Positions 6,017-59,941 of a stretch of 64,000 nt of DNA are shown here, piece by piece. Numbering within the stretch: position 1 is the stretch's first letter; each line of letters starts with the position of its first letter. The DNA comes from an uncultured Gammaproteobacteria bacterium (GTDB lineage Bacteria > Patescibacteriota > Patescibacteriia > Magasanikbacterales > GWA2-37-8), in the NCBI GenBank assembly GCA_964496095.1, contig CAZBWU010000001.1, forward strand, positions 121,474 through 185,473, given 5' to 3'. The notes under the pieces are model-generated. The model was not told the DNA's origin. It did not search any database and saw only the letters and a list, made by a program, of their open reading frames with translations. The position numbers were made by a program, and so were the translations under genes.

Positions 6017-7225
6017 GTGAACTTTGTGAAGCTAGCTGATTTATACAATCTTTCAACTAGAATGTTTAGAACCAGGCCAACCAGAACATGGTTGACCGTT
6101 CTTGGAATTGGCGTGGGAATCAGCGCGGTTTTATTTTTGGTGTCTTTGGGTTATGGGTTACAAAATGTTATTTTGCAAAAAATAGTATTCAACGAGGCGA
6201 TGTTGAGTTTAACAATTACTCCCGGTACAGATTTAATTATTTTAGACAATGAAGCAGTGGCTGATATTTTAAAAATTCAACATGTAACTGACGCATCTCC
6301 TTTAACAAAATTTACGGGTCAAATGGCACTCGGAGATTTAAATGGTACCATGGCGATAAGAGGTGTTAACGCTAATTTTTTTGGTTATTCCGGAACGGTT
6401 GCCAAAGCCGGCGATGTTTTTCTTGAAAACGAATCAGGCCAGATCGTGGTTTCCGAGGCTGTTTTAAAACTTTTCGGCGTGCAAGATCCGAAAGATATAA
6501 TTGGCAAGGAAGTTAGTTTAAAAATATTCATAACCAGCAGTAGTGTCAGTCAATCGCAATTGGAAATTGTCGATGTGCCAACCAATTATATTGTCAAAGG
6601 TGTGGTTGAAGATTCGCAAGATAGTTATATCTACATGCCGCTTAAGGAATTGGCAAGTTATGTGAAAGTAAATAGTTATGAACAAGCCAGGGTAAAAGTT
6701 GATGAAATTAACAATTTACAGTCGGTAAAGGATGCTATGCTTATAAAAGGATACCAGACACAATCACTATCTGAAATAATTGAACAGGCAAATAAAATTT
6801 TTCAAGTTATTCAAATAGTGCTCGGCTTATTTGGAGCTATTGCTTTAGTCGTTTCCGCGATCGGCATGTTTAACACCATGACGGTTACGTTGTTGGAAAG
6901 AACGAATGAAATCGGTATTATGAGATCTTTGGGAGCTAGTAAAGGAAATTTACGAAACTTATTTTTGAGCGAATCGATTGTGATTGGTTTTCTTGGTGGT
7001 GTAGTTGGTATTATAATCGGAATTTTGGGAGGGCAATTTACTAATTTAGTAGTCAATAGCCTGGCGGCAAAATTTGGTGGGACATCTGCAAACCTGTTTG
7101 CTTACCCGGCGTGGTTTATAATGGTAATTCTTTTTTTATCAGTAATTATCGGTTTTTTTTCAGGACTTTTTCCAGCTCGTCGCGCCGCGTCAATGGATCC
7201 GCTTGAAGCATTGAGATATAAGTAA
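6017..7225 (+). CDS. ABC transporter permease, FtsX/MacB-like
   Basis: N-terminal TM segment, large periplasmic-like domain, then a C-terminal cluster of four TM segments (ALVVSAIGMFNTMTVTLLERTNEIGIMRSLGASK is the typical FtsX-family core); GTG start, alternative ATG at 6062. Confidence 0.75.
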   Translation: MNFVKLADLYNLSTRMFRTRPTRTWLTVLGIGVGISAVLFLVSLGYGLQNVILQKIVFNEAMLSLTITPGTDLIILDNEAVADILKIQHVTDASPLTKFTGQMALGDLNGTMAIRGVNANFFGYSGTVAKAGDVFLENESGQIVVSEAVLKLFGVQDPKDIIGKEVSLKIFITSSSVSQSQLEIVDVPTNYIVKGVVEDSQDSYIYMPLKELASYVKVNSYEQARVKVDEINNLQSVKDAMLIKGYQTQSLSEIIEQANKIFQVIQIVLGLFGAIALVVSAIGMFNTMTVTLLERTNEIGIMRSLGASKGNLRNLFLSESIVIGFLGGVVGIIIGILGGQFTNLVVNSLAAKFGGTSANLFAYPAWFIMVILFLSVIIGFFSGLFPARRAASMDPLEALRYK

Positions 7226-7289: not shown

Positions 7290-7736
7290 ATGCAAAATTC
7301 ACAAATTAACCGAGTTATTAAGTTGGTCAGGCGGACAGGGGACAAGGCAGTCATTATGGATAACGAATCAGACTCAGTTATGATGCTTATGGACTTGGAT
7401 GCTTATGAAAAAATGTTAGAAAATTCTGGAAGAGTGGAAACTTTAACCGAAGAAGAGTTGATGGATAGAATAAATAGAGATGTAGCTGTTTGGAGGGCTT
7501 ATAATGACAAAGAACGCTCAGAAAAGTTGGTTGATGAGGAGGTTGTAGAACAAAAACCTATGGCAAAATCAGCGCCAGTTATGGAAGAAAAAAGGCCAAT
7601 ATTAGCCAAAAATAACAGTTTTATTCCGACAGAAGATGCAGATCTAGGTCATACCCCCATCCTTCCTGAAGAATCTGCTGGCGATATCGTGGCCGAAGAG
7701 GAAGAAGAGAAGTTTTATCTTGAGCCCGTAGAATAG
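7290..7736 (+). CDS. Hypothetical acidic protein with Phd/YefM antitoxin-like N-terminal domain
   Basis: AAGGAG Shine-Dalgarno 8 nt upstream; the N-terminal ~45 aa (RVIKLVRRTGDKAVIMDNESDSVMMLMDLDAYEKMLE) resemble the Phd/YefM fold pattern; long Glu/Asp-rich tail; no toxin partner adjacent. Confidence 0.5.
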   Translation: MQNSQINRVIKLVRRTGDKAVIMDNESDSVMMLMDLDAYEKMLENSGRVETLTEEELMDRINRDVAVWRAYNDKERSEKLVDEEVVEQKPMAKSAPVMEEKRPILAKNNSFIPTEDADLGHTPILPEESAGDIVAEEEEEKFYLEPVE

Positions 7737-9538: not shown

Positions 9539-9540
9539 TT

Positions 9541-9606
9541 TGTCCCGATTTTGCTTCGAGCAAAATTGAGGATCCGCGATTCCGCGACAAAGGGGAATCG
9601 GGACAG
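9541..9606. repeat. Nested-hairpin palindromic intergenic element (outer stem GTCCCGATT/AATCGGGAC with inner hairpins)
   Basis: Inverted repeats read directly; inner hairpin ATTTTGCTtcgaGCAAAAT. Confidence 0.5.
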
Positions 9607-9642
9607 GTCCCAGCTGGCGTTGACATTGAGATAAAGATGTAA
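9607..9642 (+). pseudogene. Second copy of the rpsJ 3' end: encodes [11 protein letters not shown]-stop, identical at amino-acid level to the S10 C-terminus but with ~10 synonymous substitutions; different frame, no start codon
   Basis: gtcccagctggcgttgacattgagataaagatgtaa versus rpsJ gtgccagcaggtgtagacatagaaatcaaaatgtag. Confidence 0.55.
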
Positions 9643-9653
9643 ACCCTTGACAG

Positions 9654-9682
9654 GTAATAAAAATTGTAGTAAAATCTAGATA
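9654..9682 (+). promoter_or_regulatory. Candidate promoter TTGACA-N17-TAAAAT driving the rplC leader
   Basis: Consensus -35, 17-nt spacer, AT-rich -10. Confidence 0.5.
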
Positions 9683-9790
9683 AATAAAAAAGTTTGTTCA
9701 GACTGAGTAAATAAGATCTAAAAGCCCTGATATTACTGAATATTTAAGACGGGCGAAGAAAACATTTACAAGGTCAGAAAAAACTGGAGG

Positions 9791-9884
9791 AAAAATATTT
9801 AACAATTCACCCAGTGAAATAATTCCGATAAAATCGGAATTGCCACAAAGTGGCATTTCACAGGGTAAACAAATTAAGCCATTC
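9791..9884 (+). ncRNA. Conserved structured leader RNA motif, copy 1 (three-way junction: 10-bp closing stem CCAGTGAAAT/ATTTCACAGG, hairpin AATTCCGATaaaATCGGAATT, hairpin GCCACaaaGTGGC, tail GGGTAAACAAATTAAGCC)
   Basis: Second copy at 55486-55574 shows compensatory changes (GAT/ATC to GAC/GTC; GTGGC to GTGGT); preceded by a TTTAACAAT boxA-like string. Confidence 0.6.
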
Positions 9885-9945
9885 TAAAATTCCTTAAAGT
9901 AAGGATGTTCGCTTAGATATAAATTTGAGCGAACAAGCAAGAAGG

Positions 9946-10002
9946 CTAGAAACGAAATCGTGATTAAGTAAGATTAATTTCGCTGTCGTTTCTAGTTTTT
10001 TA
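9946..10002 (+). terminator. Leader terminator/attenuator upstream of rplC
   Basis: Stem CTAGAAACGAAAT...ATTTCGctgTCGTTTCTAG followed by TTTTTT; additional hairpin GTTCGCT...AGCGAAC at 9907-9934. Confidence 0.6.
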
Positions 10003-10038
10003 ATTAAGACTTATCTCGTATATCTGGATATTACTAGT

Positions 10039-13171: not shown

Positions 13172-13543
13172 ATGACAGAAGTAACAGCAAAATTGAGATT
13201 TCTAAGAATGGGGCCACGCAAGGTTAGACTTGTGGTAGATATGATTCGCGGAAAAAAAGTTACAAGAGCCCTAGATATTTTATCAGTTTTGCCAAAAAGA
13301 GCAGCTTTACCAATTTTAAAATTACTAAATTCTGCAATTGCCAATGCTAAACACAATCATTCCTTGGCAGTTGAAGATTTAAAAGTGGCTCAGATTTATG
13401 TAGATGGCGGACCGGTACTGAAAAGATCCATGCCCAAAGCTCATGGCCGCGCTACCCCAATCCGAGAAAGAACGAGTCATATCAATTTAGTGTTAACAAA
13501 GTTTGAAACAAAAGCAAAGGCGGAAAAAAAGGAAACTAAATAA
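13172..13543 (+). CDS. rplV: 50S ribosomal protein L22
   Basis: Position in operon; RMGPRKVRLVVDMIRG motif. Confidence 0.93.
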   Translation: MTEVTAKLRFLRMGPRKVRLVVDMIRGKKVTRALDILSVLPKRAALPILKLLNSAIANAKHNHSLAVEDLKVAQIYVDGGPVLKRSMPKAHGRATPIRERTSHINLVLTKFETKAKAEKKETK

Positions 13544-13573
13544 TAATTTAATTACTGCTCACTCATTTCGAAT

Positions 13574-14269
13574 ATGGGACATAAAGTACATCCGAAAATT
13601 CACAGAATACCAACTATTTATACTTGGGATTCAAAATGGTTTGCAAAGAACAAGCAGATGCCTTTGTTTTTAGAACAAGAAACCGCTATTAGAAAATTGT
13701 TAACCAAAAAATTGAAAGATTCTTTACTTGATGGTATTAGTATTGAGAGAACTCCAAAGGATCTAACAGTTTATATTCTTTCTGCAAAACCAGGTACTAT
13801 TATCGGCCGAGGCGGACAAGGTTTGGAAGGTTTATGCAGACAAATTGAAAAAGAAATTTTACAACAAAAATTAAAAGTTAAAATTAATGTTTTAGAAGTA
13901 CGCCAACCATCTTTGTCAGCTCAGATTATGGCGCAAAATGCAGCGACCGATATTGAAAAACGTTTTCCTTTCCGCAGAGTTATGAAACAATTGATTGAAA
14001 GAGTAATGACTGCTGGCGGACAGGGTGTTAAGATTTGTATGAGTGGACGCTTAAATGGCGTAGAAATTGCTAGAACTGAAAAACTAAGCGCTGGTAAAAT
14101 GTCACTTATTACTGTTCGTAGTGATGTTGACTATGCTTTGGCTGAAGCTCAAACTTTATATGGAAAAATTGGTATTAAGGTTTGGATTTATAAAGGTGAA
14201 GCATTTAGTCGTCGAGATAAATTTGCTAAAAAAGACGATGAGCCAAAGGTAGAAGGGAAAAGAAAATAA
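13574..14269 (+). CDS. rpsC: 30S ribosomal protein S3
   Basis: MGHKVHPKIHR... KH and S3-C domains; conserved CTCACTCATTTCGAATATG motif at the start. Confidence 0.96.
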   Translation: MGHKVHPKIHRIPTIYTWDSKWFAKNKQMPLFLEQETAIRKLLTKKLKDSLLDGISIERTPKDLTVYILSAKPGTIIGRGGQGLEGLCRQIEKEILQQKLKVKINVLEVRQPSLSAQIMAQNAATDIEKRFPFRRVMKQLIERVMTAGGQGVKICMSGRLNGVEIARTEKLSAGKMSLITVRSDVDYALAEAQTLYGKIGIKVWIYKGEAFSRRDKFAKKDDEPKVEGKRK

Positions 14270-18087: not shown

Positions 18088-18579
18088 ATGAGCAAACCAA
18101 TGGGTAGAAAAGGCGATAGACAGAAAGAAAAACCTGAATTTGATCAGTATATTTTAGATTTGGCCAGAGTAACTCGTGTTACCAAAGGTGGTAAGCATAT
18201 GAGTTTTCGCGCTGGTGTTATTTTGGGTGATCGCCACGGTAAAGTTGGTTTTGGTTTAGCTAAAGGAAAAGACGTTCAGCTCGGCGTAGACAAAGCCATG
18301 CATCAAGCTAAGAAAAATATGATTGTGGTACCGATTGTTAATGAAACTATTCCTCACGCTGTTGTTTGTAAATTTAAAGCGGCAACTGTATTTTTAAAAC
18401 CAGCTCCAAAAGGTTCTGGAATTATTGCTGGTGGCGCTACTCGCGCGATGCTTGAACTTGCCGGTATTCCGAATGTATCTTCCAAGATTTTAGGTAAAAC
18501 AAAAAATAAAGTGACTATCGTTAAGGCGACCTTTAATGCTTTGCAGATGTTTAAAAAAACCACACCTAAAGAAATTTAA
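18088..18579 (+). CDS. rpsE: 30S ribosomal protein S5
   Basis: RVTRVTKGGKHMSFRAGVILGD motif. Confidence 0.96.
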   Translation: MSKPMGRKGDRQKEKPEFDQYILDLARVTRVTKGGKHMSFRAGVILGDRHGKVGFGLAKGKDVQLGVDKAMHQAKKNMIVVPIVNETIPHAVVCKFKAATVFLKPAPKGSGIIAGGATRAMLELAGIPNVSSKILGKTKNKVTIVKATFNALQMFKKTTPKEI

Positions 18580-18590
18580 AACCCGAAATT

Positions 18591-19040
18591 ATGTCTTTAC
18601 ACATTCATACAATTGGACCTGCTAAAGGAGCAAAATCTGCCAGAAAATTACTTGGTAGAGGTAGTGCTTCCGGACGTGGTACAACCGCTGGCCGTGGTGG
18701 AAAAGGACAAACTGCCAGATCTGGTGGTAGTCATGGCACTGTGCGCCGTGGTTTTAAGTTTCAATTACAATCAACTCCAAAACTTCGTGGTTTCAATAGT
18801 TTCCGAAACAAACCAGCTGAAGTGTATTTGTCTGATTTAGAAAATAAATTTGCCGAAGGTGAAGTTGTAAATATTGCTTCTTTGAAAGAAAAAGATCTGA
18901 TTAATACTCAAGTCAAAACTGCTAAGGTTTTGTCTACTGGAGAAATCACCAAAAAATTAGTTATAGAAGGCCTCTTATTCACTAAAGCTGCAGCTGAGAA
19001 AATTAAAGCTGTTGGCGGTGAAATTCACCCTGTTAAATAA
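18591..19040 (+). CDS. rplO: 50S ribosomal protein L15 (no rpmD/L30 between S5 and L15)
   Basis: GRGSASGRGTTAGRGGKGQ motif. Confidence 0.95.
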   Translation: MSLHIHTIGPAKGAKSARKLLGRGSASGRGTTAGRGGKGQTARSGGSHGTVRRGFKFQLQSTPKLRGFNSFRNKPAEVYLSDLENKFAEGEVVNIASLKEKDLINTQVKTAKVLSTGEITKKLVIEGLLFTKAAAEKIKAVGGEIHPVK

Positions 19041-44513: not shown

Positions 44514-44546
44514 AAAAATCCAGCCCCAAAAGGGCTGGATTTTTTG
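44514..44546 (+). terminator. Rho-independent terminator AAAAATCCAGCCC-caaaa-GGGCTGGATTTTTT
   Basis: Perfect 9-bp stem + T6. Confidence 0.8.
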
Positions 44547-44555
44547 TTCATTTTG

Positions 44556-44592
44556 TGGTATAATACAATTATATGAATTAAAAATTCATATA
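44556..44592 (+). promoter_or_regulatory. Extended -10 promoter TGgTATAAT followed by perfect palindrome ATATGAATT-aaa-AATTCATAT (operator-like) upstream of the CAP-domain gene
   Basis: Read directly. Confidence 0.5.
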
Positions 44593-44684
44593 AACTCATT
44601 CGCTCGGAAATACTCAGTTCAATATTTATAATTCGTAATCGATTATAAATATCTCACCGACTATTTCACTCGCTCATTTCGATT

Positions 44685-45641
44685 ATGAAAAAAATACTAA
44701 AAAAGTACTTTATTTCTCATAAAGAAAATAATTTTCATGCCCACCTACTTCACACGAAGCGGGCAGTTTTTTATGGCTTGGTTTTTTTATTGACCAAGAT
44801 TATTTTGGTTACTTTTGTTTTGTTTTTACCCGTTGGCGTATTTGTCTTGCCTGATGTCTTGGCCGAAGAACAAAAACAAATTTTGGCTTTGACCAATCAG
44901 CTTAGACACAATAAAAAACTAGCAGTATTATCCGAGATGGACAAGTTAAACCTATCAGCTCAAAACAAAGCAGAGGATATGGCCAATAATAATTATTTTG
45001 CTCATTCTATTGATGATAAGAGTTTGTCTACCTGGCTACAAGGAGCAGGTTATAAGTATGAAGTAGCGGGGGAGAATCTGGCAGTTGGTTTTAGTAGTGC
45101 CCAAGATATATTAACTGCTTGGGAAAAAAGCCCAACCCATTATGCAAATTTAATTGACCCAGACTTCAAAGATTTGGGGATTGGTTTGGCTGGAGGAGTA
45201 TATAAAGACCAACCCACGGTTTTTATTGTTCAACATTTTGCTACGCCAGTTGCAGTAGTCAAAGAGGAGCCGGCTAAAAAAATAATTGGCAAAAAATCTT
45301 CGGTGGTGGAAATAAAAGTTGAAAAAGATCTTATTCCAGAGCCTGATGCGCAAGAACCACAGTTGGTTTTGGGAGGAAAAATAAAAAACGAAGAATCTCA
45401 AAATCCCATAGTTAGTCAAAATCAATCTTCACCTGTTGAAAAATATATCCAAGCTAAGAATGTTTTATCACCGCTGACAAATATTTTTGCTGTATCACAA
45501 AATATTTATTTTGGAGCTATGCTTTTTTTTGCTTTTGTGTTACTTTTAAACATAGTCATTCATTTGCGCAAACAGCACTACCATATTATAGCTCAAACTA
45601 GTGGCTTAATTGCTTTGCTGTTTATTTTTTGGAAATTTTAA
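44685..45641 (+). CDS. CAP/SCP (YkwD-like) domain protein with N- and C-terminal TM anchors
   Basis: CAP motifs ...NNNYFAHS...GENLA...AWEKSPTHYANL. Confidence 0.75.
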   Translation: MKKILKKYFISHKENNFHAHLLHTKRAVFYGLVFLLTKIILVTFVLFLPVGVFVLPDVLAEEQKQILALTNQLRHNKKLAVLSEMDKLNLSAQNKAEDMANNNYFAHSIDDKSLSTWLQGAGYKYEVAGENLAVGFSSAQDILTAWEKSPTHYANLIDPDFKDLGIGLAGGVYKDQPTVFIVQHFATPVAVVKEEPAKKIIGKKSSVVEIKVEKDLIPEPDAQEPQLVLGGKIKNEESQNPIVSQNQSSPVEKYIQAKNVLSPLTNIFAVSQNIYFGAMLFFAFVLLLNIVIHLRKQHYHIIAQTSGLIALLFIFWKF

Positions 45642-52711: not shown

Positions 52712-52815
52712 AATTTGTTTAGTTTTATTTACTGTAAACTTGTAATGAGTTTGTTAACTGTCATTCGCTCAAAAATATTTTAGCTAGCTAAATATTTTAT
52801 TCACTCATTTCGTAT

Positions 52816-53652
52816 ATGAAAAAAATAATTGCCCTGTTCGCAGTCATCGCAGTCTTAGGTGTTATAGTTGTTTTTTATAATTCCAGAAAACCAATCTCGC
52901 AAACTGATGAATATAATAATGGGATAGAAGATTTGGCTGGTTTAATTATAGAAAATGTAGAATCGGGTAGTATTATTTTATCGCCCTTGAAAATTATAGG
53001 GCGTATTACTGGTGATGGTTGGATCGGTTTTGAAGGTCAGGTAGGTAATGTTAGTTTAGTAGATAGAGAAGGTAATGTATTAGATACTAAGCCACTGACT
53101 GCTACTTCCGATTGGATGACTTCGACCGTCCGTTTTGAAGCTAATATAGAATTTTTTACCACTGCTACGTCGGGTAAACTTGTCTTTAGAAATGAAAACC
53201 CGAGTGGGGAGCCATCAAGAGACAGATCTGTTTCTCGGAATATAAAATTCGCTCCAGCTGGAGAAGTGGTGAATTTAAAAGCGTATTTTAGTAATAGTAA
53301 TCTTGATCCAAAGATTACTTGCAAAGAAGTTTTTCCTGTGGCTAGGACTGTGGCCAAGACTGCAGGAGTAGCCAGAGCCGCGCTTGAAGAAATGCTCAAA
53401 GGTCCAACTTCGCAAGAACAGGCCGGCGGGTTTGCTAGTATGATTAACCTTGGTGTAAAGATTAATAGTCTCACTATAGATAAAGGCGTAGCCAAAGTTG
53501 ATTTTGATGGGACAATTCAGCAAGGCGTAGGTGGGTCATGTCGGGTAAGTATGATGAGATTGCAAATAGAGCAAACTTTAAAACAATTTCCAACTGTACA
53601 GAGTGTGATTATTTCTGTTGATGGTAAGACAGAAGATGTTTTACAACCATGA
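52816..53652 (+). CDS. Membrane-anchored GerMN/Gmad2-like domain protein
   Basis: N-terminal TM; C-terminal GerMN-like region; 4-nt overlap with uvrC; conserved CACTCATTTCGTATATG start motif and 26-bp perfect palindrome AAAATATTTAGCTAGCTAAATATTTT upstream. Confidence 0.55.
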   Translation: MKKIIALFAVIAVLGVIVVFYNSRKPISQTDEYNNGIEDLAGLIIENVESGSIILSPLKIIGRITGDGWIGFEGQVGNVSLVDREGNVLDTKPLTATSDWMTSTVRFEANIEFFTTATSGKLVFRNENPSGEPSRDRSVSRNIKFAPAGEVVNLKAYFSNSNLDPKITCKEVFPVARTVAKTAGVARAALEEMLKGPTSQEQAGGFASMINLGVKINSLTIDKGVAKVDFDGTIQQGVGGSCRVSMMRLQIEQTLKQFPTVQSVIISVDGKTEDVLQP

Positions 53653-55485: not shown

Positions 55486-55574
55486 ATTAAAAATATTGAC
55501 CCAGTGAAATAATTCCGACCAAGTCGGAATTGCCACAGAGTGGTATTTCACGGGGTAAACCAATTAAGCCCTTC
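55486..55574 (+). ncRNA. Conserved structured leader RNA motif, copy 2 (upstream of rpsA)
   Basis: About 85% identical to 9791-9884 with compensatory base-pair changes in two helices. Confidence 0.6.
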
Positions 55575-55641
55575 CAATTTAGAGAAGAGCACCCGTAGCC
55601 AATTTATTGGCAGGGATAAGGAGTATTTTTTTGTTAAATAT

Positions 55642-56805
55642 ATGTCAGAAGAAAAAAACCAAAAAGAAGTTCAGGACTTCAAAACCCTGCTCGCGTCTTA
55701 TCAACTTACCATTCCAAAAGAAGGGGATGTTGTTAAGTGTAAAATAATTTCTATCGACAAAGGTGAAGTGCATGTAGACATCGAGGGTTTGACTGTGGGT
55801 GTGGTTCGTGGACGAGAATTGTTTGCCGAGTCCAAGGAATACATGAGTCTAAAAGTGGGCGACGAAGTAGAGGCCACTGTTTTGGATCTAGAAAATGAAA
55901 ATGGCGAAATGGAATTATCATTCCGCATTGCCGGTTATCAACGCGCTTGGGGTAATGTCAAGAAATGGATGCAAGACAATATTACTATCAAAGGAAAAGT
56001 GTTGGCTGCTAATAAAGGTGGTTTGATGATGCAGGTAGAAGGCTTGGCTGGTTTTATGCCAGTTTCTCAGCTTAACCCTGATCACTACCCAAGAGTTACA
56101 GGTGGCGACAAAAATCGTATTTTAGAAAAATTACGAGAATTGATGAATAAAGAATTAGAAGTGAAAGTAATTGATGTTAATGAGAAAGAAGAAAAATTAA
56201 TCGTTTCTGAAAAAGCCGTTTGGGAAGATGCTCAAAAGACTGTTTTGGAATCATACAAAGTTGGCGACGCAGTAGAAGGAGAGATCTCTGCTTTAACTTC
56301 CTTTGGCGCCTTTGTGAAATTTGGTCAAGACTTAGAAGGTTTGGTTCATATTTCCGAAATCGCTTGGCAGCGTATTGATCATCCTAAGGATATTCTCAAA
56401 GTGGGTGATAAGGTTAAAGCTCAAATTATCCAACTCGACAGATCCAAGATTTATTTGTCTATCAAACGTTTGGTAGATGATCCATGGAAGACTGTAAAGG
56501 ATAAATATAAAGTTGGCGACAAGGTTGAAGGTAAGATTTTGAAGATTGAACCGTTTGGTTTGATGGTTGCCTTGGACAAAGACATTCACGGCTTGGCTCA
56601 CATCTCTGAGTTAGCTGATGAAGGTATTACCAATATCTCCGAGAAGTTCAAGATCGGTCAAACTACTGACTTTGAAGTTGTTTCCTTAGAACCACCAGAG
56701 CACCGATTAGGTTTGAGATTATATGGTGTTAAAGGAAAAGCCAAAAAAGTAGAAGAAAAGCCAGTCGACGAAGCCAAGAAACCAGCTGAGGAGAAAAAGG
56801 CTTAA
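55642..56805 (+). CDS. rpsA: 30S ribosomal protein S1 (four S1 domains)
   Basis: Repeated S1 OB-fold motifs (G..V.G.V......G.FV); the ORF-track start at 55540 overlaps the leader motif and is unlikely. Confidence 0.9.
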   Translation: MSEEKNQKEVQDFKTLLASYQLTIPKEGDVVKCKIISIDKGEVHVDIEGLTVGVVRGRELFAESKEYMSLKVGDEVEATVLDLENENGEMELSFRIAGYQRAWGNVKKWMQDNITIKGKVLAANKGGLMMQVEGLAGFMPVSQLNPDHYPRVTGGDKNRILEKLRELMNKELEVKVIDVNEKEEKLIVSEKAVWEDAQKTVLESYKVGDAVEGEISALTSFGAFVKFGQDLEGLVHISEIAWQRIDHPKDILKVGDKVKAQIIQLDRSKIYLSIKRLVDDPWKTVKDKYKVGDKVEGKILKIEPFGLMVALDKDIHGLAHISELADEGITNISEKFKIGQTTDFEVVSLEPPEHRLGLRLYGVKGKAKKVEEKPVDEAKKPAEEKKA

Positions 56806-58881: not shown

Positions 58882-58934
58882 AAAAAACGTCCTTATTGTA
58901 AGGGCGTTTTTGTTTGTCTAAAGTTGTGTTATAA
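58882..58934 (+). promoter_or_regulatory. ftsH terminator hairpin (AACGTCCTT...AAGGGCGTT + T-run) followed by extended -10 TGtTATAAT
   Basis: Read directly. Confidence 0.55.
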
Positions 58935-58972
58935 TATAGCAAGCTTAATTATTTCGCTCACTCATTTTGTAT

Positions 58973-59941
58973 ATGAAAGAACCAACATATCGTCAAACTC
59001 TTGGGTATGCCTGGGAAGCGGTTTGGCATAATAAAATTTTATGGGTATTTGGTCTGTTGTCTGTATTTTTAGGGCAATTAGGTTTTAGCGATATTTTTGG
59101 TAAAATTTGGTCCGTGCTTGATGCGAGCAGTTTGGCTGAGGATAATATTAGTATCTTGTCAACCTTTAATATTAGTATTCCGGTAGGTGTTTGGAATATT
59201 TTGGGTATAGTTTGGTTAACAATAATTTGTGTATCAATAGCGGTGACGGTTGTTTTTTTGGCAGTCACTTCTCAGGGAGCTTTGATTTCGTATTCAGCCG
59301 ATTGGTTCAAAACTCGTAAGCATAAAGAAATAGATAAATCTTGGCATAATAGTGTTAAGCATTTTTGGAATATTTTATTAATAAATTTGGTCCGCCAAGC
59401 AATCCTTCTGGGTTTGCTTGTTGGTTTTGTGTTTGTTGCTAAATATTTTTTTAGTTCACAATCTTGGTCGCAAGGATTATTGTTTGCTTTAGCCTCGTTT
59501 TTAGCCTTATTTATTTCTTTATTCTTATCTGTTTTTTCAGTTTATACTTTATGTTATGTAGTTTTAGATGGTAAAGGTTTAGTAAAATCTGTCAAAAAAG
59601 CTTGGCTCTTACTTTCTGATCACTTTTTAGTTTCTTTGGAAGTTGGCGTTGTCTTAATGCTCTTGAATTTACTTTTGGTGGCGGTTATTATTGGGGGGTC
59701 ATTTTTTGCCTTTTTACCAACTGCCTTTATTTGGATAGCTGCCGGTATTAGTAATTCTGTTTCCTTGGCAGTTTTAGGATTAATTTTCGGTATATTTTTA
59801 GTCTTGTTATTTATTGTTTTGGTTGCAGGGTTGTTTAACGCATTTACAACTAGCGCTTGGGTTTTCTTGTTTATTAAAATGCATAAAGAAGGTATTTCTA
59901 GTCGCTTAGTTCATTATGTAAAGCACATGTTTTCTAGATAA
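58973..59941 (+). CDS. Hypothetical polytopic membrane protein
   Basis: 7-8 TM helices; conserved CTCACTCATTTTGTATATG start motif; TTG at 58967 is an alternative start. Confidence 0.55.
   Translation: MKEPTYRQTLGYAWEAVWHNKILWVFGLLSVFLGQLGFSDIFGKIWSVLDASSLAEDNISILSTFNISIPVGVWNILGIVWLTIICVSIAVTVVFLAVTSQGALISYSADWFKTRKHKEIDKSWHNSVKHFWNILLINLVRQAILLGLLVGFVFVAKYFFSSQSWSQGLLFALASFLALFISLFLSVFSVYTLCYVVLDGKGLVKSVKKAWLLLSDHFLVSLEVGVVLMLLNLLLVAVIIGGSFFAFLPTAFIWIAAGISNSVSLAVLGLIFGIFLVLLFIVLVAGLFNAFTTSAWVFLFIKMHKEGISSRLVHYVKHMFSR

Follow-up and report, generated by a model that had tools for sequence, protein, structure and literature searches.

How start codons are marked in a bacterium whose genes lack Shine–Dalgarno (SD) sequences is the question raised by a 64,000-nt stretch of contig CAZBWU010000001.1 (positions 121,474 to 185,473, forward strand; hereafter the window), which comes from an uncultured member of the Magasanikbacterales, a lineage of the candidate phyla radiation (CPR, or Patescibacteria). 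Nearly identical pyrimidine-rich strings of 17–19 nt end here at the ATG of four genes, encoding the ribosomal protein RpsC, a CAP-domain protein, a GerMN protein and a membrane protein, and the first-pass annotation had read them as a free-standing signal. They are not free-standing: their specific part, a 13-nt word (the 13-mer), is the conserved 3′ tail, and the most conserved single-stranded segment, of a structured, multi-copy and lineage-specific repeat element of about 85–95 nt. The element is previously undescribed; its structure can be described securely, and its mechanism we infer.

With at most one mismatch, the 13-mer CTCACTCATTTCG has four matches in the window when either strand is searched, and no others. 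Dinucleotide shuffles predict 0.05 matches (standard deviation 0.22), and none of 100 shuffles contained four. All four matches lie on the + strand with a constant gap of 3 nt to the ATG, where they had been reported before the rpsC, CAP, GerMN and membrane-protein genes; a real, start-proximal element of non-SD type is therefore present. At three mismatches to CTCACTCATTTCG the count is at chance level, so that the window contains no halo of weak copies of the 13-mer. The identities of the rpsC, CAP-domain and Germane/GerMN genes are confirmed by Pfam, and the membrane-protein gene that follows the string at 58957–58969 has no Pfam hit.

Extension of the true hits upstream gave the architecture (TATAKGGGC-loop-GCCVCATATA)-NN-CTCATTCGYTC-(hp2)-N-CTCACTCATTTCG-NNN-ATG. 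The first hairpin, hp1, is short and has a G+C core, typically of the form given. It is followed by the linker CTCATTCGYTC and by an A+U-rich hairpin of 10–13 bp, hp2, in which the sequence varies and the pairing is preserved. At some loci, a third copy of the 13-mer lies directly 5′ of hp1. The total recovered exceeds 160 copies; they stem from groundwater metagenomes and from no fewer than 25 genome assemblies, and the hosts are Candidatus Magasanikbacteria-like CPR bacteria. By its RpsC homologues, the window belongs to Candidatus Magasanikbacteria.

The distribution of the element was assessed by several searches. A scan of species-representative genomes for YTCRCTCATTTYGWWTATG gave at least 117 stretches. 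About half of the matches listed belong to metagenome-assembled genomes (MAGs) of Magasanikbacteria/Patescibacteria, or to otherwise labelled MAGs with 37–49% G+C. The Magasanikbacteria/Patescibacteria matches are followed by a long open reading frame (ORF) and preceded by about 75 nt of conserved sequence, and a single assembly contains several of them (MFRA01 has at least six that are exact). Those listed from other phyla are singletons without an ORF, in which stop codons follow, and viral contigs, examined as a control, gave 59 singleton matches without ORFs, which corresponds to chance level. A metagenome scan for CTCATTCGYTC-N18-40-CTCACTCATTTCG, in which no ATG was demanded, yielded at least 119 stretches, mostly from groundwater, representing 110 unique copies. 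R1, a covariance model of the repeat element, identified 118 copies within 862 kb of related loci (denoted below by L numbers); 17 of them fit neither search pattern, and these include eight that are flush with an ATG and an ORF, six without an adjacent gene, and three with an apparent start within about 12 nt. Applied to the window with filters off, R1 returned exactly the four sites and none other at E < 3. In Rfam searches at gathering threshold, the window and 18 loci with full copies gave tRNAs only, and no match at an E of 1 or less overlapped any element. A literature search found no paper reporting the element's sequences or such an element in CPR bacteria.

The proposed tie of the motif to gene starts is borne out by the 110 metagenomic copies, which were retrieved without selection for ATG. 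The 13-mer is followed by NNN-ATG in 78 of them, and 72 of these 78 open an ORF of at least 50 amino acids. The remaining 32 copies have NNN-ATA (20), NNN-ATT (5), NNN-ATC (4) or something else (3), and AT occupies positions +4 and +5 in 107 of the 110. Among the 72 ATG-linked copies with an ORF, 48 stand behind a co-directional gene and 13 behind a divergent one. In a stricter search, the stop codon of the upstream co-directional ORF could be placed for 39 ATG-linked copies. In 20 of these 39 it falls within 1–30 nt 5′ of the linker, where it sits at or inside hp1, for example as TAG within TATAGGGGC or as TAA in the loop. Locus L198 carries two back-to-back divergent copies, each adjoining its own ATG, so that orientation tracks the gene and not the replicon. 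The 90 downstream proteins match 134 different Pfam families, including ribosomal proteins, glycosyltransferases and RecA; since these genes are unrelated, the element appears to be a general expression module rather than the signal of a regulon. We estimate that the module of about 90 nt precedes roughly one gene in ten to twenty. The first-pass annotation had also envisaged, as an adverse outcome, a longer dispersed repeat unrelated to gene starts; the longer repeat exists, but it is linked to starts.

Several sequence variants of hp1 deserve mention. Common ones carry stop codons apparently used by upstream ORFs, namely TAG in TATAGGGGC and TAA in the loop of GGGC-TAAA-GCCC, and such stop-bearing variants were seen in related loci including L260, L223, L228, L185 and L204. 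The variant TATATGGGCTAAAGCCC spells a mini-ORF, ATG-GGC-TAA.

Evidence for hp2 and for P1, a long-range helix in which U-A-U-A-N-N-C pairs with G-N-N-U-A-U-G, comes from RNAalifold as well as from explicit counts of pairs. The 5′ strand of P1 ends at the first C of the linker and draws on the end of the 3′ arm of hp1, on NN and on that C. Its 3′ strand spans positions −4 to +3 of the downstream gene, start codon included, with the G of ATG pairing to U as a wobble. For P1 and hp2 together, 90.4% of the alignment cells in 106 copies are paired, as compared to 72.4% in shuffled alignments and 38–55% with slid partners. Cells with double changes number 335 (101 in shuffles), the covariation score is 0.425 (0.146 in shuffles), and none of 500 shuffles reaches the observed values. 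Double changes occur in 15 of the 20 pairs, and the covarying pairs comprise 12 of 13 in hp2 and 3 of 7 in P1. Covariation of this extent, above both shuffle and slide controls, is what characterizes a structured cis-acting RNA element.

Offsets 1–3 of P1 form Watson–Crick pairs in 91, 102 and 108 of the 110 copies (38.8, 55.8 and 83.7 expected). Of 52 copies, 43 and 47 have the NN bases paired with positions −3 and −2 of the start; for pairing with the bases 5′ of hp1 the numbers are just 14 and 17. The idea that P1 is an extension of hp1 was rejected for this reason, and P1 appears to be selected in its own right. The hairpin hp1 has a mean folding energy of −6.2 kcal/mol (−2.4 kcal/mol when shuffled) and reaches −5 kcal/mol or lower in 65% of sequences versus 13% of shuffled ones. 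Since hp1 and P1 share the AUAU bases, the two compete. Between P1 and hp2 lies an internal loop formed by the two opposing conserved strands, UCAUUCGYUC and CUCACUCAUUUC; folding predicts that both remain largely single-stranded (0.71 for the 13-mer).

Three further ideas about these structures were discarded. UNCG tetraloops in hp1 were dropped, because the commonest loops are UAAA and 3-nt UUC or UAC within GGC-UUC-GCC, and not the canonical C(UUCG)G. A two-fold-symmetric internal loop serving a dimeric protein was rejected, as both UCAUU(U)C tracts adjoin P1 and are not related by a dyad. Finally, hp1 cannot be taken for an intrinsic terminator, because the T-tract that marks the genuine terminators at 44514–44544 and 58883–58911 is missing from it.

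The element is kept before orthologous genes of different genomes. It was found in this position before rplK (L11), rpsN (S14), rplX (L24), rpmE (L31) and a gene for an MBL-fold protein, whose products share 86, 92, 63, 69 and 50% identity, respectively. In these pairs the sequences of hp1 and hp2 have diverged and the conserved strands are identical or nearly identical. In the rplK pair, the sole difference in hp2 and the sole difference in P1 are both compensatory, from G-C to U-A. Fixed position and orientation, combined with conservation at orthologous loci, again correspond to the behaviour of a structured cis-acting RNA element. Action at the RNA level, as previously proposed, is therefore most likely: two helices, one of them including the start codon, covary strongly, and the changes in the L11 pair compensate each other.

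The four window genes had been described as having no SD sequence. This is true of them but not special to them. In the window, which has a G+C content of 38.8%, an SD-like core (GGAG, GAGG or AGGA at −20 to −4) precedes 4 of 47 ATG genes, and 7.8% of random 17-mers contain one. The window genes have a generic start context, WWT-ATG, with T at −1 in 44 of the 47 and with AAT and TAT as the commonest triplets at −3 to −1. With SD cores at background and T at −1 nearly general, neither the absence of an SD nor the ‘(N2)TATG’ of the proposed motif distinguishes these four genes from the rest of the genome. The TATG part of that motif is largely generic context; the 13-mer is its specific part. 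Such a Kozak-like start context in a CPR bacterium can be seen at window gene starts such as 10039, 12794, 13172 and 14896.

Being rich in pyrimidines, single-stranded and close to the start in a genome without SD use, the motif might act as a translational enhancer by pairing with the organism's own 16S rRNA outside the anti-SD. This explanation was examined with the 16S rRNA of a motif-bearing relative rather than that of the window genome itself, whose gene lies outside the window (L096:4074–5697, Candidatus Magasanikbacteria RIFOXYD1_FULL_40_23, RpsC 84% identical), which ends in the canonical anti-SD GGATCACCTCCTTTCT. The best duplex between the 13-mer and the L096 16S rRNA has −10.6 kcal/mol, which is worse than the mean of shuffled motifs (−13.7 kcal/mol), and 98% of the shuffles do equally well or better; extended versions of the motif stay within the shuffle range. 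The complementarity that had been suggested is thus no better than that of shuffled sequences with the relative's 16S rRNA. The explanation would need a CGAAAUGAGUGAG-like accessible segment in the organism's own 16S or 23S rRNA, and we consider it extremely improbable. A candidate partner for the pyrimidine-rich motif is the product of the gene at 55540–56805 (+ strand; the GTG listed as its start is uncertain), an S1-domain protein that has three such repeats and is likely the ribosomal protein bS1.

The window contains two near-complete copies of the element (CAP and GerMN), one partial copy (membrane-protein gene) and one vestige (rpsC), whose parts are as follows.

13529–13576, + strand: rpsC copy, a vestige (R1 score 13.4 bits, E = 1.6, match at 13529–13569, model positions 44–84 only)
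13529–13557, + strand: degenerate remnant of hp2 in the rpsC copy
13558–13570, + strand: perfect 13-mer CTCACTCATTTCG of the rpsC copy, followed by the spacer AAT (13571–13573) and ATG (13574–13576)
44556–44687, + strand: CAP copy, near complete, of the enlarged-hp2 subfamily (R1 score 44.1 bits, E = 1e-8, match at 44587–44687)
44556–44564, + strand: extended −10-like box TGgTATAAT of the CAP copy
About 44569–44593, + strand: hp1 variant TTATATGAATT-aaaa-AATTCATATAA of the CAP copy
44589–44595, + strand: 5′ strand of P1, TATAAAC, in the CAP copy
44595–44605, + strand: linker CTCATTCGCTC of the CAP copy, an exact linker match
44606–44668, + strand: hp2 of the CAP copy, with the base GGAAATA...TATTTCA around a 49-nt insert that has its own hairpin
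44669–44681, + strand: 13-mer CTCGCTCATTTCG of the CAP copy, followed by att and by ATG at 44685
44681–44687, + strand: 3′ strand of P1, G-ATT-ATG, in the CAP copy
52733–52818, + strand: GerMN copy, in the intergenic space between uvrA and the GerMN gene (R1 score 50.6 bits, E = 2e-10)
52733–52759, + strand: diverged hp1 region of the GerMN copy
52760–52770, + strand: linker GTCATTCGCTC of the GerMN copy
52771–52799, + strand: hp2 of the GerMN copy, with the arms AAAAATATTTTAGC and GCTAAATATTTTA
52800–52812, + strand: 13-mer TTCACTCATTTCG of the GerMN copy, followed by TAT (52813–52815) and ATG (52816–52818)
58927–58975, + strand: copy before the membrane-protein gene, partial (R1 score 22.1 bits, E = 0.007, match at 58889–58975)
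58927–58935, + strand: extended −10-like box TGtTATAAT of the membrane-gene copy, overlapping the left arm of the hp2-like hairpin
58930–58956, + strand: hp2-like hairpin of the membrane-gene copy
58957–58969, + strand: 13-mer CTCACTCATTTTG of the membrane-gene copy, followed by TAT (58970–58972) and ATG (58973–58975)

The rpsC copy has no hp1, no linker and no P1, and its 13-mer starts 14 nt beyond the rplV stop codon (13541–13543). In the CAP copy, P1 has one mismatch. The pairing of P1 is broken in the GerMN copy, where R1 flags four P1 pairs as non-standard; the same arrangement as in this copy is present in an independent Logan contig, L001. The membrane-gene copy has neither linker nor hp1, and its predicted 5′ untranslated region (UTR) is only about 30 nt long. 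What remains in both the partial copy and the vestige is the 13-mer beside the ATG, which argues that the 13-mer matters most. The enlarged-hp2 subfamily, characterized by an insert of about 49 nt with its own conserved hairpin (ATATTTATAAnTCGnnnnCGAnTATAAATAT) and by CTCAG/CTCAC-like strings on the flanks, occurs in several genomes (L121:4942–5067; L266:1309–1434 and 6356–6481; L063:16968–17094; L235:3796–3922).

The rpsC string had served as an argument for action at the RNA level on account of its location inside an operon. That argument is not supported, because this copy is a decayed vestige (13.4 bits, E = 1.6). At the rplV–rpsC junction of L061, L063 and L065, whose RpsC proteins are 90, 84 and 79% identical to that of the window, there is no motif; the same genomes carry it elsewhere, for instance before adk. 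A full element before rpsC was found in one metagenomic relative (L230:4419–4510).

Alternation of this kind is one of the observations that favour a different account, in which the element is selfish miniature mobile DNA of the MITE or REP type (miniature inverted-repeat transposable elements or repetitive extragenic palindromes). It would spread by copy-and-paste with a bias of insertion or retention for WWT-ATG, the hairpins would serve mobility, for example as single-stranded DNA, and effects on genes would be incidental. Presence and absence alternate among relatives at rplV–rpsC (full in L230, a vestige in the window, empty in L061, L063 and L065), at rplN–rplX (full in L101, L152 and L216, empty in the window), at secY–adk and upstream of rplW (occupied in L063, empty in the window). 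The hp2 variant GGAAATAATCAAAnACATTTGATTATTTCT precedes unrelated genes in several MAGs, antisense and gene-less copies occur, multi-module arrays resemble tandem duplications, and the window itself contains decayed copies. However, the terminal inverted repeat, which would be P1, has only 7 bp, fewer than the approximately 10 bp or more of a MITE, and three of these pairs vary between copies with compensation. Within one genome hp2 varies so widely that a single transposase could not recognize all copies. The comparisons of occupied and empty sites at rplN–rplX and rplV–rpsC, which are few, revealed no target-site duplication, no long terminal repeat was seen around the copies, and no transposase gene was identified, although none was searched for systematically. 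Instead of equal numbers in both orientations, 65–71% of copies are in sense orientation with the exact 3-nt spacing to a native start and about 10–15% are antisense. Retention before the same genes across 50–92% protein identity, with compensatory changes in the rplK pair, also disagrees with a purely selfish nature. We regard this account as unlikely, though it is the rival to be taken most seriously.

For a comparison with known repeats, the features of NEMIS/Correia, ERIC/IRU, BOX and RUP repeats are taken as background, and those tested in the analysis are the features of the present element. All these repeats resemble it in being short (about 100 nt), multi-copy and lineage-specific, in forming long hairpins, in lying often just 5′ of ORFs or between cistrons, and in varying in presence among relatives. 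Repeats of the NEMIS/Correia type are co-transcribed and can alter the stability or processing of neighbouring mRNAs, a likeness in which the function of the present element would have its counterpart. Correia repeats have 26-bp terminal inverted repeats and a TA target duplication, and occur in both orientations at variable distances from ATG. The present element, by contrast, has a 7-bp outer repeat that varies with compensation and contains the start codon, keeps the 3-nt spacing to ATG in about 70% of copies, and showed no target duplication at the few sites compared. With the REP/BIME/REPIN sequences of Proteobacteria, which are associated with RAYT transposases and thought to stabilize mRNA, it shares abundance, imperfect palindromes in the intergenic regions of operons, and compensatory pairing. 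REPs are 20–40 nt long, have a conserved GTAG head, and lie mostly 3′ of genes without relation to start codons, whereas the present element has no GTAG head, contains two invariant unpaired pyrimidine strands, and is oriented with the gene and flush to its ATG.

The position of copies between co-directional genes inside ribosomal-protein operons is consistent with another explanation, namely that the element is a signal for RNA processing or stability. A double-strand- or loop-specific endoribonuclease would cleave the structure composed of P1, internal loop and hp2, in the manner of RNase III at intercistronic sites of phage T7; the cut would separate cistrons, leave hp1 and hp2 as protective ends, and free the start codon. 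A lower stem of 7 bp (P1, for which a weak helix is predicted), a conserved internal loop measuring some 10 by 12 nt and an upper stem of 10–13 bp (hp2) would resemble RNase III sites of the T7 type. NEMIS/Correia repeats near start codons of Neisseria are RNase III substrates and would provide a precedent. In copies before first genes, such as the CAP copy of the window and those at L198, hp1 occupies the place of a 5′-terminal protective stem-loop. Recognition by RNase III is, however, mostly structural and would not need two invariant pyrimidine strands, and the 13-mer alone persists in decayed copies without any helix (rpsC in the window; rplN in L152). We give this explanation little credence as the principal role of the element.

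The surroundings of the CAP and membrane-gene copies bear on transcription. A bidirectional terminator at 44514–44544 lies just 5′ of the CAP copy, which consequently belongs to a new transcription unit, and the terminator at 58883–58911 lies directly 5′ of the membrane-gene copy. With a terminator and an extended −10-like box upstream in both cases, the element or its remnant would be a 5′ UTR. An alternative is that the 13-mer is itself a promoter element, recognized by an unusual sigma factor, with transcription starting at or just before the ATG and yielding leaderless or short-leader mRNAs. A constant spacing to ATG, strand specificity and the occurrence inside operons would be in line with this, as would the lack of SD sequences, which is also found in lineages rich in leaderless mRNAs. 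Yet positions −12 to −7 read CTCATT, with T in place of the near-invariant A of the sigma-70 −10 box and no TAnnnT; a related linker, CTCATTCG, precedes hp2 and not a gene; and good TATAAT or extended −10 boxes are located upstream of the whole element in first-gene copies. In promoter scans of the + strand, no prediction uses the motif except a weak 9/12 match whose −10 lies inside the GerMN ORF. As the covariation of P1 and hp2 would also be left without explanation, a promoter is very improbable.

On balance, we lean towards the reading that the element is a multi-copy cis-acting RNA module, located in 5′ UTRs or between cistrons, which governs initiation at the downstream gene in an SD-less lineage. 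Its transcript would form the 5′ UTR where it precedes a first gene and an intercistronic spacer where it lies within an operon, and it would act in cis on the downstream ORF. The unpaired C/U-rich strands may be a landing or recognition site, for which the likeliest partner would be the 30S subunit through the S1 protein, or else a dedicated RNA-binding protein. The hairpins may protect and insulate the mRNA, and the competition of hp1 and P1 for the AUAUA bases could gate access to the start codon. Because the upstream stop is often at or inside hp1, a terminating ribosome would melt this hairpin and let P1 form. A more specific version holds that the element is a portable, SD-independent start-site module that has spread as a reusable cassette in a lineage that abandoned SD pairing: the ribosome or an initiation partner would dock on the conserved pyrimidine loop as its dedicated landing site, and the hp1/P1 toggle would hand the terminating ribosome across the spacer of about 85 nt to the AUG. 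In this detailed form the proposal is a speculative one, which we think improbable.

A number of observations speak against a cis-acting initiation module. About 10–15 of the 110 copies are antisense between two genes of the opposite strand (for example, at L294 between rpsM and rpsK, and at L201 before rplL), an orientation not expected to persist for a 5′ UTR acting purely in cis, and further copies have no adjacent gene. Near-identical hp2 variants stand before unrelated genes in different genomes, and occupied and empty orthologous sites alternate among relatives; in these respects the family behaves like copy-and-paste DNA. In thermodynamic folds hp1 wins, with a mean P1 pair probability of 0.09 in the full-length RNA that rises only to 0.26 when the left arm of hp1 is omitted. 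If P1 matters, it probably needs a partner or a rearrangement driven by the ribosome. Initiation is normally inhibited when a helix encloses the start codon, so that ‘enhancer’ is not the obvious direction of the effect. The ratio of G·U pairs to A·C mismatches in hp2, which bears on whether the sense strand folds as RNA, is ambiguous, being 32 to 5 in a count based on minimum free energy, which favours the sense strand but is driven by terminal G·U, and 6 to 14 in an unbiased gapless count. Transcription of the element, the identity of its partner, the direction of its effect (activation or repression) and, indeed, all functional steps of the reading are what we infer.

Some known leaders are related in principle to the initiation module that we favour. 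S1-dependent pyrimidine- or AU-rich leaders, such as that of Escherichia coli rpsA, and the SD-less initiation of Bacteroidetes are likewise independent of SD despite a conserved anti-SD, and have single-stranded pyrimidine or A/U tracts beside hairpins 5′ of the start. Those leaders are gene-specific or a matter of composition, whereas the present element has an invariant 13-nt word before dozens of unrelated genes; we know of no S1-type leader whose start codon belongs to a long-range helix that covaries. Another parallel is with cis-acting RNA switches in which alternative pairing masks the start region, such as RNA thermometers and the translational-coupling hairpins of ribosomal-protein operons: in the present element a weak A/U-rich helix, P1, encloses the start codon together with positions −4 to −1, another hairpin, hp1, competes for the same bases, and the upstream stop lies at hp1, as in translational coupling. 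The known thermometers and coupling hairpins are single-locus and mask an SD, but the present element is portable, occurs at many loci and has no SD to mask. Exact abutment to start codons, a covarying start-codon helix and invariant unpaired strands set it apart from its closest known counterparts, the co-transcribed intergenic repeats and the SD-independent leaders of S1 type.

Inspection of the ribosomal-protein region revealed some further features. The non-coding rpsJ–rplC gap of 300–500 nt is conserved (window 9539–10038, L061:6001–6391, L063:6081–6380, L065:6415–6585) and comprises a promoter-like block TTGACA-N17-TAAAAT, about 300 nt of conserved sequence and the terminator-like CTAGAAACGA...TCGTTTCTAGTTTTTT. 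These features give it the appearance of an independent small RNA gene within the S10 operon; the gap has no Rfam match even at an E of 1. Pairing of the 13-mer with this putative small RNA was considered and dropped, being no better than that of shuffled sequences. In the window (18088–19040), rpsE is directly followed by rplO with no rpmD (L30) in between, and the order is the same in L061, L063 and L065; such loss of a ribosomal protein is typical of CPR bacteria. Directly 5′ of tuf, a conserved protein of about 150 amino acids without a recorded Pfam hit is encoded (window 7290–7736, + strand; L061:3732–4178; L063:3682–4137), at the position where rpsL, rpsG and fusA would normally be expected.

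Several canonical copies were found in assemblies with other taxonomic labels, namely in L099 (DATION01, ‘Candidatus Udaeobacter’) and in ‘uncultured Gammaproteobacteria’ such as CAZXML01 (L083, L094, L095 and L130) and CAZETA01 (L076, L119, L127 and L129). One ‘Udaeobacter’ RpsC is 83% identical to the CPR protein of the window. These bins are probably mislabelled Patescibacteria, in which case the element works as a clade marker that exposes such mislabelling. In addition, the R1 covariance model can be used to mark true start codons and operon boundaries in these MAGs.

CPR bacteria, or Patescibacteria, account for a large share of bacterial diversity and are almost all uncultured, and to our knowledge next to nothing is known of their gene expression. 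The element belongs to a lineage that has a canonical anti-SD, as judged from the 16S rRNA of the relative, and yet makes no use of SD sequences. If the module directs or gates initiation, it represents a new solution to start-site selection and would offer a sequence-defined handle for S1 and 30S binding, structure probing and the reading of metatranscriptomes. If it also hands ribosomes over as a start-site module, it would be a bacterial counterpart of termination–reinitiation or ribosome shunting. If it is a domesticated mobile repeat instead, it would plainly exemplify how 5′ UTRs can be provided by a genomic parasite. The element may thus reveal how ultra-small groundwater bacteria without the usual ribosome-binding signal start or control protein synthesis.

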